Virus genome (UHGV): UHGV-0243446
Length of the DNA stretch: 11,725 nucleotides
Direction: 5' to 3' (one strand)
Source: a virus
Shown: in pieces, positions 6,518-11,725 of the stretch
Layout of the letters: the number at the start of each line of letters is the position of its first letter
Position numbering within the stretch: position 1 is the stretch's first letter
Program-made: the position numbers and the translations under genes
The notes under the pieces: generated by a model
What the model was told of the DNA's origin: nothing
Databases searched by the model: none
What the model saw: the letters and a program-made list of their open reading frames with translations, nothing else

Positions 6518-6817
6518 TCAAATAAGTGGTTTGCTGCCTAATTTCATTTTCTGGCGACCAACACAAGTCACACCCATTTCACTGCGTGGCTTGCTGTAGT
6601 AAATACGGTTCTGTTTACGCTCGACTTCTTCTGCCTTCTTGCAGCGAAGGCTTCCGAGTGATGCTGCTTTGTCTGCTCTGACGCAACCAGAGAGCTTTAG
6701 CGCAATTTTTCGCGCCAGTCGCTGTTCTTGCATTGCCTGTTCACGTTGAGCCTGTCTGCGTGCTCTGCGGCGATTTCTGGTGTTATCGTCAGCCAGATAT
6801 GTAATGACTACTGCCAT
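6518..6817 (-). CDS. N: N-family transcription antitermination protein
   Basis: ATG at 6817 with GGAGG RBS 5 nt upstream. N-terminal arginine-rich motif (TRNRRRARRQAQREQ). C-terminal region (RKQNRIYYSKPRSEMGVTCVGRQKMKLGSKPLI) resembles lambda N. nutL lies upstream in the leader. Confidence 0.85.
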   Translation of the reverse strand: MAVVITYLADDNTRNRRRARRQAQREQAMQEQRLARKIALKLSGCVRADKAASLGSLRCKKAEEVERKQNRIYYSKPRSEMGVTCVGRQKMKLGSKPLI

Positions 6818-7185: not shown

Positions 7186-7575
7186 TTAGTCAGCGAAGGT
7201 TAAGACGAGAATTACCTTAATGATGTCTGCTACAACAGACACGGCCATAGATAAACCAAAGACAATCCAAGCCATAGAGATGTCTTCACTACCATCGTAT
7301 AGAGTTCCGTAATCACTGGTGTAAGGCGTAAATGTCGCGCCTTGATACAACAGGTATAAGCTTGAACCATAGAGGATAAATGCAGATATCCCTTGTATTG
7401 CTATGATCACCAGAATCATGAAACGAGCTGATCTATGCGCCCAAGCCTGGCTTATTTTTTCTGATAGAGATTTCGCAATAAAAGCATGCGCTAAGCCGTA
7501 AATTGTCGAGATTTCCAACATCCCCAAAAAGCTTGCTATAGCGGTTCCAACCATAATCGCCCCTTGCGTGATCAA
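7186..7575 (-). CDS. Small polytopic membrane protein (3 predicted TM helices) in the rex/immunity-region position
   Basis: Track ORF begins with TTG overlapping the cI stop. An ATG about 7554 with AAGGGG RBS is likely the real start (about 122 aa). Three hydrophobic segments of about 22-25 residues. Downstream of cI on the same strand, as rexAB is in lambda. Confidence 0.6.
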   Translation of the reverse strand: MITQGAIMVGTAIASFLGMLEISTIYGLAHAFIAKSLSEKISQAWAHRSARFMILVIIAIQGISAFILYGSSLYLLYQGATFTPYTSDYGTLYDGSEDISMAWIVFGLSMAVSVVADIIKVILVLTFAD

Positions 7576-8595: not shown

Positions 8596-8640
8596 CGCTC
8601 TTTAACAGTCATGGTCCTCATTCCCGCCGAAATGCGGGAA
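8596..8640 (+). promoter_or_regulatory. nutR: boxA (CGCTCTTTAACA, 8596-8607) plus boxB hairpin (8621-8640)
   Basis: boxA matches the lambda boxA core CGCTCTT. boxB TTCCCGC-CGAAAT-GCGGGAA is a perfect 7-bp stem and is identical to the nutL boxB. Confidence 0.75.
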
Positions 8641-8697
8641 TACAACGCGCATCAGTTGGTGCGTATAACTTCTTATTTATTAAGGAAATACTTACAT

Positions 8698-8976
8698 ATG
8701 CAACTTACAAGTACTCGCAAGAAAGCGAATGCAATTACAAGCAACATCCTGAATCGAATTGCTGTACGTGGTCAGCGAAAGGTTGCTGATGCATTAGGGA
8801 TTAATGAATCGCAAATTTCGCGATGGAAAGACAGCTTTATCCCAAAGATGGCCATGCTTCTGGCTGTGCTGGAGTGGGGTGTTGAAGACGAGGAATTAGC
8901 GGAGCTGGCAAAGAAAGTAGCCATGGTGCTGACAAAAGAAAAGCCTCAAGACTGCTGCAACAGTTTTGAGGCCTGA
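8698..8976 (+). CDS. cII: cII transcriptional activator
   Basis: ATG at 8698 with AAGGAA RBS. Product ...ESQISRWKDSFIPKMAMLLAVLEWGV... resembles lambda cII (KSQISRWKRDWIPKFSMLLAVLEWGV). The track start at 8611 lies inside nutR and has no RBS. Confidence 0.85.
   Translation: MQLTSTRKKANAITSNILNRIAVRGQRKVADALGINESQISRWKDSFIPKMAMLLAVLEWGVEDEELAELAKKVAMVLTKEKPQDCCNSFEA
8700..8745 (-). promoter_or_regulatory. PRE-like cII-dependent promoter (TTGC-N6-TTGC on the minus strand at 8731-8744)
   Basis: Plus strand reads GCAA-TTACAA-GCAA inside the 5' end of cII, the position of PRE in lambda. The -10 element is not confidently located. Confidence 0.5.
8930..8972 (-). terminator. Intrinsic terminator on the minus strand (oop-RNA-like antisense terminator inside the cII 3' end)
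   Basis: 12-bp stem GCCTCAAGACTG/CAGTTTTGAGGC with a 6-nt loop (8943-8972). On the minus strand it is followed by a U-rich tract (complement of ACAAAAGAAAA, 8932-8942). Confidence 0.5.
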
Positions 8977-9010
8977 TGTAGAAAGACTGGATCAATCCAC
9001 AGGAGTAATT

Positions 9011-9172
9011 ATGACAAAACGTCGTAAGAAATACCAGGAAAAAGAAGAGATTCGACACCCTGATTCACCTGAGGGATTAGTGGTAGCCGCAGCAAATAAC
9101 AGGGCGTTCGCAGAGCGCCTTGTTGGTGTTTACAGACTAGCCAAAGCAGGAGTGAAGCATGGGCGTCGTTAA
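9011..9172 (+). CDS. Hypothetical small basic protein (53 aa) between cII and the replication initiator
   Basis: ATG about 9011 with AGGAG RBS about 6 nt upstream; its stop overlaps the start of the downstream O-like ORF. The track's longer version begins with TTG at 8966 inside cII. Confidence 0.35.
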   Translation: MTKRRKKYQEKEEIRHPDSPEGLVVAAANNRAFAERLVGVYRLAKAGVKHGRR

Positions 9173-10049
9173 GTTAGCTGATTACAGGCATAACCCTGTA
9201 CAACATCAGGAGGCATCCAGTATGGGGTATGTCTCTATACACCGCCAGTTTATGGACAGCAGGCTCTATAAGGACTCTCAGGCAGTACATCTTTGGCTTC
9301 ACTTAATCCTCAAGGCTAATCACGAATCTACTGTCGTCAATACGGATATCGGTCCGATAACTGTTGATCGCGGTCAGATGATAACTGGACGCCCGTCGCT
9401 GGTCAGAGAAACATTCATCCCCGACAACAAAGTTCGGAGCTTATTACGGACTTTTGAGTCGAAAGGGATGCTTAATATTTGCTCGATGGGGAAGAAATTT
9501 AGCCTGTTTACAATCGTTAAATATGACGATTTTCAGGCAAAAAATTGTCCAACGGTTGTCCAACGGTTGTCCAACGCAAACACCAGTAATGGCGCGGCTC
9601 TCAGCGGAGATTGTCCAACGGTTGTCCAACGGTTGTCCATAAACAATAATATAAATAATATCTCTAATACTGACGTATTAGAGAGTGCCACAGCAGACAA
9701 AAAGTCTGACAAGAAAAAACCTTCCGTCAGCTGTCAGGATGTTGTCGATGCTTACCACGAAATCCTTCCTGAAGCGCCAAGAATCCGCGCACTGAATGAC
9801 AAGCGTAAAAACCAGATCCGAACGTTCTGGCGCAAAGCCGGAGTGATAACCCGCCAGCTTGACGGGCATGGGTTCACGATGCAGGACTGGAGAAATTATT
9901 TGAGCTACGTAGGCGAAAATTGCCGATGGATGTTCGAAGAACGCCCAAACCATCAACGCGGAACCGTCTGGCACAAAAAGGGATTTGATTTCCTGCTTAA
10001 CGACAATACCTACCTGAAAGTTCGTGAGGGTGAACACGATGACCGATAA
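9159..10049 (+). CDS. Replication initiator (lambda O-like / replisome organiser) containing the origin iterons
   Basis: Sits in the O position and is translationally coupled to the helicase. Iterons and an AT-rich tract lie inside the coding sequence, as ori-lambda lies inside O. An alternative start at ATG 9222 has a strong AGGAGG RBS. Confidence 0.7.
   Translation: MGVVKLADYRHNPVQHQEASSMGYVSIHRQFMDSRLYKDSQAVHLWLHLILKANHESTVVNTDIGPITVDRGQMITGRPSLVRETFIPDNKVRSLLRTFESKGMLNICSMGKKFSLFTIVKYDDFQAKNCPTVVQRLSNANTSNGAALSGDCPTVVQRLSINNNINNISNTDVLESATADKKSDKKKPSVSCQDVVDAYHEILPEAPRIRALNDKRKNQIRTFWRKAGVITRQLDGHGFTMQDWRNYLSYVGENCRWMFEERPNHQRGTVWHKKGFDFLLNDNTYLKVREGEHDDR
9545..9643. repeat. Phage replication origin iterons: six copies of an 11-bp repeat TTGTCCAACGG in two triplets
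   Basis: Copies at 9545-9577 and 9611-9643 with 11-bp register. Followed by an AT-rich tract (9641-9665) and a 9-bp inverted repeat CTCTAATAC-TGAC-GTATTAGAG (about 9660-9685). Confidence 0.75.
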
Positions 10050-11475
10050 TTTTTATGCGCCGCCCCATAGCATCGAGGCAGAGCAGGCGGTTATTGGTGG
10101 ATTGCTTCTGGATGATGACAGCAGTGAGCGCGTCCGGAAAGTTCTGGCGATGCTGAAGCCTGATTCATTTTACAGCCGACCACACAAAATCCTTTTCGAA
10201 GAAATAACCAGAATGCACCGGGAGCAAAAGCCAGTAGATGGGCTGACGCTTTTCGATGAACTGGAGCGCAAATCGTTAACGGCGTCTGTTGGCGGTTTTG
10301 CTTATATCGCTGAGATCGCAAAGAACACGCCAAGCGCAGCAAACATCGTTGCCTATGCAATGCAGGTTCGTGAAACCGCAATGGAACGCTACGCCATCAA
10401 CCGCATGACTGAAGCGACGGAATTGCTCTATTCCCGCAACGGAATGACTGCAACGCAGAAGTACGAAGCTATTCAGGCGATTTTCACGCAACTGATAGAT
10501 CATGCAAAAACCGGATCGCGTCGCGGCCTTCGCTCATTTGGTGAGGTCATGGAAGACTGGGTTAGTGACCTTGAGAAGCGATTTGACCCATCAGGCGAAC
10601 AACGGGGAATGAGCACAGGGATCCCATCGCTGGACAGGATGCTGTCACCGAAAGGTCTGGTGAAAGGCTCTCTGTTTGTCATTGGCGCCCGCCCTAAGAT
10701 GGGGAAAACGACGCTATACAGCCAGATGGCAATCAATTGCGCAGTGCATGAGAAAAAGCCCGCTTTGATGTTCAGCCTTGAAATGCCAGGTGATCAGATA
10801 CTGGAAAAACTGGTAGGGCAGAAGTCTGGTGTTAACCCGAATATTTTTTACCTTCCGGCGACAAATGACGCTGATGACGGCTATCAGGGTGATTACGATG
10901 GTGACTTCAACAGGGCGATCGAAACAGCCAATCGCTTGAGTGAAATCGACCTGCTTTACATCGACGACACGCCGGGATTATCTCTGGCTCAAATCGTCAG
11001 CGAAAGCCGTCGAATCAAGCGAGAAAAAGGATGTGTTGGCATGATTCTGGTCGATTACCTGACACTAATGACCGCTGAGAAGGCCGATCGCAACGACCTT
11101 GCTTACGGCATGATCACCAAAGGACTGAAGAACCTTGCCAAAGAGCTTGATTGCGTTGTTGTGCTTCTGACACAGCTTAACCGCGCACTGGAAAGCCGAA
11201 CCAATAAACGCCCATTACCAAGTGACTCACGAGATACAGGGCAGATTGAACAGGATTGCGATTATTGGGTCGGGATCCATCGTGAAGGCGCTTTTGATGA
11301 CAGTGTTCCACCTGGTGAAACTGAACTAATCCTTCGTCTCAATCGTCATGGCAATACCGGCACGGTGTATTGCATTCAGGCAAATGGCGCTATTTATGAC
11401 ACAGACCAACAGTCTGCTGAAATGCGCCGCCGTGAACGCGAGGAACCGCAGTCCAAGAAGAAAGGAGGATTCTGA
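10039..11475 (+). CDS. DnaB-family replicative DNA helicase
   Basis: N-terminal PHSIEAEQAVIGGLL motif typical of DnaB. Walker A GARPKMGKTT; Walker B-like ILVDYLTLM. ATG 10039 with GAGGGTGA RBS overlaps the O-like stop. The track start at 10024 is a GTG. Confidence 0.9.
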   Translation: MTDNFYAPPHSIEAEQAVIGGLLLDDDSSERVRKVLAMLKPDSFYSRPHKILFEEITRMHREQKPVDGLTLFDELERKSLTASVGGFAYIAEIAKNTPSAANIVAYAMQVRETAMERYAINRMTEATELLYSRNGMTATQKYEAIQAIFTQLIDHAKTGSRRGLRSFGEVMEDWVSDLEKRFDPSGEQRGMSTGIPSLDRMLSPKGLVKGSLFVIGARPKMGKTTLYSQMAINCAVHEKKPALMFSLEMPGDQILEKLVGQKSGVNPNIFYLPATNDADDGYQGDYDGDFNRAIETANRLSEIDLLYIDDTPGLSLAQIVSESRRIKREKGCVGMILVDYLTLMTAEKADRNDLAYGMITKGLKNLAKELDCVVVLLTQLNRALESRTNKRPLPSDSRDTGQIEQDCDYWVGIHREGAFDDSVPPGETELILRLNRHGNTGTVYCIQANGAIYDTDQQSAEMRRREREEPQSKKKGGF

Positions 11476-11555
11476 TGACCATCTACATCACTGAGCTAAT
11501 AACAGGCCTGCTGGTAATCGCAGGCCTTTTTATTTGGGGGAGAGGGAAGTCATGA
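11475..11555 (+). CDS. Possible hydrophobic micro-ORF (26 aa)
   Basis: ATG overlaps the helicase stop (TGATG) with AAGGAGGA upstream. Product MTIYITELITGLLVIAGLFIWGRGKS; its stop overlaps the ninB start. Could be non-coding. Confidence 0.2.
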   Translation: MTIYITELITGLLVIAGLFIWGRGKS

Positions 11556-11725
11556 AAAAACTAACCTTTGAAATTCGATCTCCGGCACATCAGCAAAACG
11601 CTATTCACGCAGTACAGCAAATCCTTCCAGACCCAACCAAACCAATCGTAGTAACCATTCAGGAACGCAACCGCAGCTTAGACCAAAACAGGAAGCTATG
11701 GGCCTGCTTAGGTGACGTCTCTCGT
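11552..11725 (+). CDS. ninB: NinB (Orf-family recombination protein), 5' partial, runs off the window
   Basis: Product MKKLTFEIRSPAHQQNAIHAVQQILPDPTKPIVVTIQERNRSLDQNRKLWACLGDVSR matches my recollection of the lambda NinB N-terminus. GGGAAG RBS upstream. Confidence 0.8.
   Translation, partial: MKKLTFEIRSPAHQQNAIHAVQQILPDPTKPIVVTIQERNRSLDQNRKLWACLGDVSR

Follow-up and report, generated by a model that had tools for sequence, protein, structure and literature searches.

A survey of 314 lambdoid phages of Enterobacteriales (within a panel of 325 phages) noted that replication modules may contain a loader, a helicase or just O (PMC12315714). In phage L, the product of gene 18 shares 15% identity with lambda gpO and 25% with P22 gp18, the gene itself carries six imprecise 11-bp repeats TGTCCAACGGA that are the likely origin of replication, and gene 12 encodes a DnaB-type helicase that is 29% identical to P22 gp12 (PMC8022706). 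As cited in the same paper, the helicase activity of P22 gp12 was reported by Wickner in 1984, and genetic work by Hilliker showed that phages L and P22 can exchange genes 18 and 12 only as a pair. Here we analyse a stretch of 11,725 nucleotides of the virus genome UHGV-0243446 (the window), and in particular its replication cassette. According to the map of open reading frames (ORFs) and the sequence, this consists of an initiator gene (9159-10049), a helicase gene (10039-11475) and an ORF of 26 amino acids (aa) at 11475-11555, with ninB beginning at 11552. We find that it is almost certainly the early-right replication cassette of lambdoid phages of the HK022/HK620/Sf6/phage L type. The cassette is real but ordinary, already described and common, and no new biology is claimed for it.

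This identity is carried by close relatives in the databases. When positions 8900-11725 were compared by megablast with 50,697 phage records, 424 matched, and in 40 of these at least 80% of the query was covered. DNA identity over the region is 97-99% to mEpX2, HK542, IME10, Sf6, mEp234, HK106 and HK75, and HK620 falls within the same group. The public records of HK75, Sf6 and mEpX2 list cII, a 53-aa ORF, a "replication protein O", a "DnaB-like replicative helicase" and a terminator/NinA-like ORF, in that order. Among 5426 complete E. coli genomes, the full 9159-11555 stretch was found in 141 and at least part of it in 2006. Pfam, NCBIfam and PHROG matches, with E-values down to 1e-136, indicate that the cassette ORFs are true genes and did not arise by chance. 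The window as a whole is mosaic, and its best phage record, mEpX2, covers 62% of it. Its cI repressor is a homologue of lambda CI (43% identity) with immunity of the HK620 type, in agreement with the initial annotation, which had described a mosaic phage with lambda-like immunity; relative to lambda, the region is indeed mosaic. It had also noted the absence of a ren-like gene, and indeed a tblastn search of the whole window with lambda O, P and Ren gave nothing better than E = 0.69. Rfam, applied at gathering thresholds over the whole window, returned no match.

The second large gene of the cassette codes for a DnaB-family replicative helicase of 478 aa (10039-11475, plus strand). The protein contains the complete profile of the DnaB N-terminal domain (PF00772, E 5e-31, 107 bits with the cutoff at 23) and the RecA-type ATPase domain DnaB_C (PF03796, E 3e-60). 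It scores 580.4 bits with the NCBIfam model for phage DnaB (TIGR03600, cutoff 498.65) and stays below the NCBIfam equivalog cutoffs for cellular DnaB. Over 440 residues it shares 40% identity with E. coli DnaB, which is also its best sequence match in the PDB (6bbm, E 3e-83); identity to P22 gp12 is 31%, and no similarity to lambda P was found. Aligned with E. coli DnaB, the protein shows Walker A (GARPKMGKT, 10684-10710), Walker B (ILVDYL, 11044-11061), H3 (LTQLNR, 11167-11184), H4 (RDTGQIEQD, 11230-11256) and the arginine-finger region (NRHG, 11338-11361), and motif H1a is likewise conserved. The initial annotation had proposed that the phage brings a DnaB-family helicase of its own in place of a lambda P-type loader, and had named beforehand a lack of conserved DnaB motifs on alignment as the result that would speak against it; since every motif is present, the proposal stands. 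By analogy with P22 gp12, the protein would act as a hexameric 5'-3' helicase that replaces host DnaB. The longest frame of this gene begins at a GTG at 10024, which would give an overlap of 26 nt with the initiator gene. We rejected this start in favour of the ATG at 10039, which is preceded by a ribosome-binding site (RBS, GAGGGTG), is the start given in the HK75, Sf6 and mEpX2 records, and fits a DnaB alignment that begins at residue 8. With this ATG the helicase gene overlaps the end of the initiator gene (stop at 10047-10049) by 11 nt, an overlap already pointed out in the initial annotation.

The first large gene codes for a replication initiator of 296 aa (9159-10049, plus strand), a predicted origin-binding protein whose ATG is preceded, 6 nt upstream, by AGGAG. 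We modelled the protein with AlphaFold2 from an alignment of 36 diverse representatives. The model predicts a winged-helix N-domain (aa 25-128, nt 9231-9542) with a predicted local distance difference test (pLDDT) above 94, a disordered linker (aa 129-182, nt 9543-9704), and a confident, helical C-domain (aa 190-293, nt 9726-10037). This model replaced a first run with an 18-sequence alignment, in which the N-domain was unfolded (mean pLDDT 52) and the fold search uninformative. Both domains resemble phage replisome organisers, which are their best fold matches in BFVD. PHROG 345 ("replication initiation O-like") spans the initiator from end to end, and its N half matches "DnaD-like helicase loader" PHROGs (E 1e-23). 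The sequence search of the PDB gave nothing at E <= 1 for this protein, and NCBIfam holds no model for the initiator, the 26-aa ORF or the 53-aa ORF. The family of the N-domain is very large, a search at E <= 1e-3 giving 8023 cluster representatives. Of 36 relatives that were sampled, seven match the Pfam family Phage_rep_org_N (PF09681, best E 7e-6), and the initiator itself matches neither PF09681 nor the DnaD models of Pfam. Its C-terminal ~110 residues, and these alone, resemble P22 gp18, with 25% identity and E 2e-4 in BLASTP, an hhalign E of 1e-3 (probability 21%) and a common ending FD(F/Y)LL...VREG...DR. The initiator of the Sf6 locus is 100% identical in both segments that were compared (aa 1-150 and 176-296), and an exact match over all 296 aa is found in Shigella flexneri.

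The initiator gene appears to contain the origin of replication. A repeat search found six copies of an 11-bp iteron, TGTCCAACGG, inside the gene. They lie in two clusters on the plus strand, one of three tandem repeats TTGTCCAACGG at 9545-9577 and, 66 bp after it, a second one of three repeats, the last of them partial, at 9611-9643, so that the spacing of the six is 11, 11, 44, 11 and 11. Next to them, at 9640-9684, an AT-rich stretch (17.5% GC in 9640-9679) is followed by a palindrome with 10-bp arms (9661-9684), and the two together are presumed to be the DNA-unwinding element of the origin. The origin of lambda has its elements in the same order, with iterons, AT-rich DNA and then a palindrome. 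The iteron is the same as that of phage L, and the region corresponding to the iterons is annotated as rep_origin in Sf6. The origin DNA codes for exactly the disordered linker of the initiator. An origin inside the initiator's own gene, between its two domains, is a design in common with lambda O; it is not proof of homology. Beside this, we observed that the unit of 66 bp (three iterons plus spacer, 22 aa) varies in copy number among relatives, with initiators of 274 aa (P0033), 296 aa (P0023, the Shigella flexneri protein) and 318 aa (P0001) having one, two and three iteron clusters, respectively; origin strength and linker length would thus vary together. One position of the peptide encoded by the iterons, CPT(V/D/Y/N)VQRLS, is not the same in all relatives, and this suggests differing iteron specificities.

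We compared the pairing of initiators with helicases or loaders across loci by using the core of the tR2 terminator, which lies at the right end of the cassette (see below), as a probe. With an exact hairpin core required, 120 loci were fetched from IMG/VR. The upstream sequence was sufficient for typing both genes in 73, and 58 of these had a recognised helicase or loader. The type of the initiator C-domain matches the partner gene in 57 of the 58, that is, in 25/25 loci with lambda P, in 15/15 with a helicase of the window type and in 17/18 with a helicase of the P22 gp12 type; the remaining locus of this last group gave no initiator whatever. N-domains, in contrast, assort freely. Helicases of the window type are paired with N-domains that are 99-100% or just 43% identical to that of the window, and the partners of P22-type helicases include Phage_rep_O N-domains as well as remote relatives (23% identical) of the window-type N-domain, so that N-domains from two unrelated sequence families accompany the same helicase. 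Because the C-domain type follows the helicase type, and because of the phage L/P22 genetics, together with the biochemistry of P22 gp12, we infer that the C-domain of the initiator recruits the helicase. With a C-domain inherited together with the helicase or loader, and a DNA-binding domain that is freely exchanged, the comparison neatly illustrates the classical two-domain model.

Could the initiator nevertheless be a true homologue of lambda O that stayed in place while the partner gene alone changed, a DnaB helicase being substituted for a P-type loader? It sits at the position of O, has its origin within its own gene as O does, and bears the label "O" in many records as well as in PHROG 345. 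The phage L protein has also been called a possible distant homologue of gpO at its 15% identity (PMC8022706). We tested for membership of the lambda O family, and the sequence comparisons argue against it. Phage_rep_O (PF04492) was not found in the initiator even at E <= 10, in a Pfam scan in which lambda O and P22 gp18 scored 5.7e-36 and 6.9e-38. BLASTP against lambda O gave a best E of 4.6, and hhalign against an alignment of the O family gave a probability of 2.8%, although this insignificant alignment still pairs topologically equivalent winged-helix regions (22-112 with 23-102). The relatives of the N-domain match Phage_rep_org_N instead, the C-domain is unlike that of lambda O too, and the 11-bp iterons are unrelated to those of lambda. 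We therefore regard a retained O gene as improbable. The name "O-like" used in the initial annotation holds for position and design and does not extend to homology, and the comparison it had suggested with the P22 and lambda proteins led, for the initiator, to a weak likeness to the C-domain of P22 gp18 and none to lambda O, and for the helicase to P22 gp12 and not to lambda P. Since the initiator as well is unlike lambda O, the whole cassette, and not the helicase or loader gene alone, differs from that of lambda. For annotators this means that the label "replication protein O" for this initiator family is not backed by demonstrable homology to lambda O. A different question is whether the cassette is a decaying prophage remnant in which the helicase or the initiator no longer functions, as might be thought from the coverage of 62% of the window, at most, by the best phage match and from the frequency of related sequence in E. 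coli chromosomes (some match in 2006 of the 5426 genomes). This we consider very improbable, given that all ORFs of the cassette are intact with overlapping starts and stops, that the catalytic DnaB motifs are all kept, that the initiator and helicase are 97-100% identical to those of the plaque-forming phages Sf6, HK620 and mEpX2, and that the iterons are perfect repeats.

For a working cassette of the HK022/HK620/Sf6/L type, the following scheme can be proposed. By analogy with lambda, transcription from pR would pass through cro, cII, the 53-aa ORF, the initiator and the helicase and would halt at tR2 if the RNA polymerase lacks the antiterminator of the phage. The winged-helix N-domain of the initiator, a predicted fold, would bind the six 11-bp iterons observed in its own gene, the AT-rich stretch beside them would then melt, and the helical C-domain would bring the DnaB-type hexamer of the phage to the origin thus opened, in which case neither host DnaB nor a lambda P-type loader would be needed. 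Host primase and polymerase would take over afterwards, as is established for P22 and lambda. Two short conserved lambdoid sequences flank the cassette, the oop-promoter joint on the left and ninA/tR2 on the right, and cassettes may be swapped there by recombination. Several points weigh against this scheme. Iteron binding, contact between the C-domain and the helicase, and independence from host DnaB and DnaC are drawn from analogy with P22 and lambda. The likeness of the C-domain to P22 gp18 is weak by the BLASTP and hhalign values given above, and the placement of the two initiator domains relative to each other in the AlphaFold2 model is not meaningful (predicted template modelling score, pTM, 0.44). 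The opening of a closed DnaB ring without a dedicated loader is left unexplained, and the 53-aa ORF carries no assigned role.

The 26-aa ORF (11475-11555, plus strand) encodes the hydrophobic peptide MTIYITELITGLLVIAGLFIWGRGKS and matches PHROG 5907 (E 1.6e-19). Its ATG has one base in common with the stop codon of the helicase gene (TGATG), and its stop overlaps the ATG of ninB at 11552 (ATGA). The initial annotation was right in placing a micro-ORF here that extends up to ninB, but it is not a gap filler specific to this phage: it is the conserved ninA, which contains the terminator tR2 and forms the right boundary sequence of the cassette. A terminator scan and RNA folding place this intrinsic terminator at 11504-11536 on the plus strand, with an 8-bp GC-rich stem (AGGCCTGC/GCAGGCCT) and an 8-nt loop (hairpin 11504-11527), followed by TTTTTATTT. 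The tR2 sequence does not vary between lambda, P22, Sf6, HK75 and the window, and a terminator or tR2 is annotated at the site of ninA in Sf6, P22 and HK75. Nearly the same 81 bp of ninA are found in lambda, where they lie between ren and ninB, and in P22 (ninA), Sf6 (gene 45, bsq6) and HK75, and the Sf6 record calls the stretch "bsq6 boundary sequence". Upstream of the tR2 core lie lambda O-P-ren, P22 18-12, the cassette described here or others, and downstream of it ninB or other genes; with such diverse genes on both sides of the same core, ninA/tR2 can be recognised as a recombination joint. The "micro-ORF" of an annotation of this kind is thus the universal ninA/tR2 joint. The gene that follows, ninB/orf (a recombination mediator), is present in the window with its 5' part (11552-11725, plus strand; Pfam NinB, E 3e-18) and runs off its end; its first 58 codons specify 58/58 amino acids identical to lambda NinB.

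Whether ninA is a gene at all deserves separate consideration, as the sequence may have been kept as a terminator and a recombination joint in which the open frame is incidental. The conservation of the DNA is extreme and includes synonymous sites in the hairpin, the lambda RefSeq record has no ninA annotation, six loci have the hairpin without a ninA start, and a variant with a one-base deletion (L020) merely lengthens the ORF. A coding role is favoured by an ORF of 24-31 aa that is intact in 107/107 loci having its ATG, and by a strong Shine-Dalgarno sequence (AGGAGG or GGAG) 6-8 nt before this ATG in five differing upstream contexts. In at least seven differing 3' junctions, moreover, the ninA stop always lies on or beside the start of the next gene. 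In codons 2-10, 7 of 12 distinct substitutions are synonymous, against an expectation of 26% (p = 0.017), and the others are conservative; read in frame +1, however, 6 of the same 12 are synonymous, so that this measure does not set the ORF frame apart. A reporter study described the initiation site of NinA as "not weak" and found that upstream expression was restored when its RBS or AUG was mutated (PMC4824070). The same study gives an efficiency of ~0.9 for lambda tR2 and finds that translation of ninA lowers it by just ~10%. In our judgement an incidental frame is a serious contender, though somewhat less probable than a translated one; translation of ninA is plausible and a function of the peptide is unproven. 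It would be a long shot, in turn, that either the ninA peptide, or its translation across tR2, tunes read-through into nin and Q or acts at the membrane, or the C-domain of the initiator serves as a loader-free device that opens the ring of the phage DnaB. If it were true, the role of ninA would tie, in practically every lambdoid phage, the expression of the replication genes to the late switch. Three of the IMG/VR loci (L010, L078 and L105) have an alternative left junction without a ninA start, and at these an ORF of 61-62 aa (MELMRVKH...) reads through the tR2 hairpin in the frame of ninA and has the tail GLLVIAGLFIWGRGK(S/CG). Read-through in the same frame with the same tail suggests that the hydrophobic segment encoded by the hairpin is reused there as a C-terminus.

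On the left, the cassette is bounded by the sequence ACTGGATCAATCCACAGGAGTAATTATGACAAA at 8987-9019, from which the first gene of the cassette takes its RBS and ATG. In an alignment this joint is kept at the start of O in lambda, of orf48 in P22 and of gene 42 in Sf6, where it is annotated as "bsq5 boundary sequence". Its opposite strand corresponds to lambda oop's promoter and 5' end, and a conserved sequence of 33 nt in the oop region has been quoted before (PMC3349717). Because the 33-nt joint matches this lambda region, an oop-like antisense RNA from the minus strand of 8987-9019 back into the 3' end of cII is likely; Rfam has no matching family for such an RNA and reported nothing at 8987-9019. 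The first gene after the joint is the basic 53-aa ORF of the HK97 gp53/Sf6 gp42 type (9011-9172, plus strand; PHROG 1331, E 3e-37), which is annotated in HK75, Sf6 and mEpX2 and whose end overlaps the start of the initiator gene by 14 nt. P22 orf48, to which it shows no similarity, sits in the same slot. Both small ORFs assort independently of initiator and helicase type, and neither was found in any of the 24 lambda O/P loci typed for the 53-aa ORF. A role of the 53-aa ORF in helicase loading was considered and is not assigned, since the ORF is tied to no particular initiator or helicase type. Upstream of the joint, the cII ORF was called at 8611-8976 (121 aa), with the Pfam CII match starting at residue 30 and annotated homologues of 279 nt, so that the true start is probably the ATG at 8698 (92 aa).

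Elsewhere in the window, a 99-aa ORF on the minus strand (6518-6817) with an arginine-rich N-terminal motif, NRRRARRQAQREQ, sits where mEpX2 annotates an N-like (P22 gp24-like) antiterminator, which fits N-type read-through of tR2. A hydrophobic ORF of 129 aa (7186-7575, minus strand) lies directly downstream of cI on the same strand, in the position of the hypothetical proteins HK620p19 and mEpX2 gp42; possibly it is a membrane protein expressed by the prophage from the rexAB/sieB slot. The leftmost ~2.9 kb (1-2900) lie outside the match to mEpX2, which begins at 2917. They contain several minus-strand ORFs of 137-302 aa, and this early-left part is a different mosaic piece.

Four described systems come closest to the cassette. 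Phage replisome organisers that combine Phage_rep_org_N with a DnaD-like C-domain share with the initiator a predicted winged helix and a helical domain, although the initiator itself stays under every Pfam threshold. Characterised replisome organisers work with a separate loader protein, such as G39P of SPP1, and no such gene is present in the window. The lambda O-P-ren genes occupy the same slot of the early-right operon, with an origin in the initiator gene in which iterons are followed by AT-rich DNA, and with an initiator of two domains, the C-domain being matched to the partner. The left joint, the ninA/tR2 joint and the N-terminus of NinB are identical in lambda and the window. Here, however, the initiator has no detectable similarity to O, a helicase replaces the P loader and ren is missing; the lambda record annotates four iteron sites of 18 bp, whereas the window has six of 11 bp.

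For P22 the arrangement is textbook knowledge, and its orf48-18-12-ninA-ninB genes have the same layout: a small ORF comes first, then an initiator whose gene contains the origin, a helicase of the DnaB type, ninA including tR2, and ninB. The ninA of P22 is almost identical to that of the window and the initiator C-domains are weakly related, but the N-domain of gp18 belongs to Phage_rep_O and that of the window does not, the iterons differ and the small upstream ORFs are unrelated. The helicase shares more identity with E. coli DnaB (40%) than with its P22 counterpart gp12 (31%). Finally, the same genes in the same order are found in HK022 (gp53-54-55), HK620 (O, P), Sf6 (gp42-43-44-45), mEpX2, HK75 and the Salmonella phages L and ST64T. 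The members from coliphages and Shigella phages share 97-99% nucleotide identity with the window, and the ninA/tR2 joint is common to the HK022/HK620/Sf6/L group. Within this cassette type the number of iteron clusters varies, with two in the window (296 aa) and one or three in relatives (274 or 318 aa). Directly after ninA comes ninB in the window, just as it does in lambda and P22; in Sf6 and HK75, further genes separate the two. In substance, the cassette of the window does not differ from that of the HK022/HK620/Sf6/L group.

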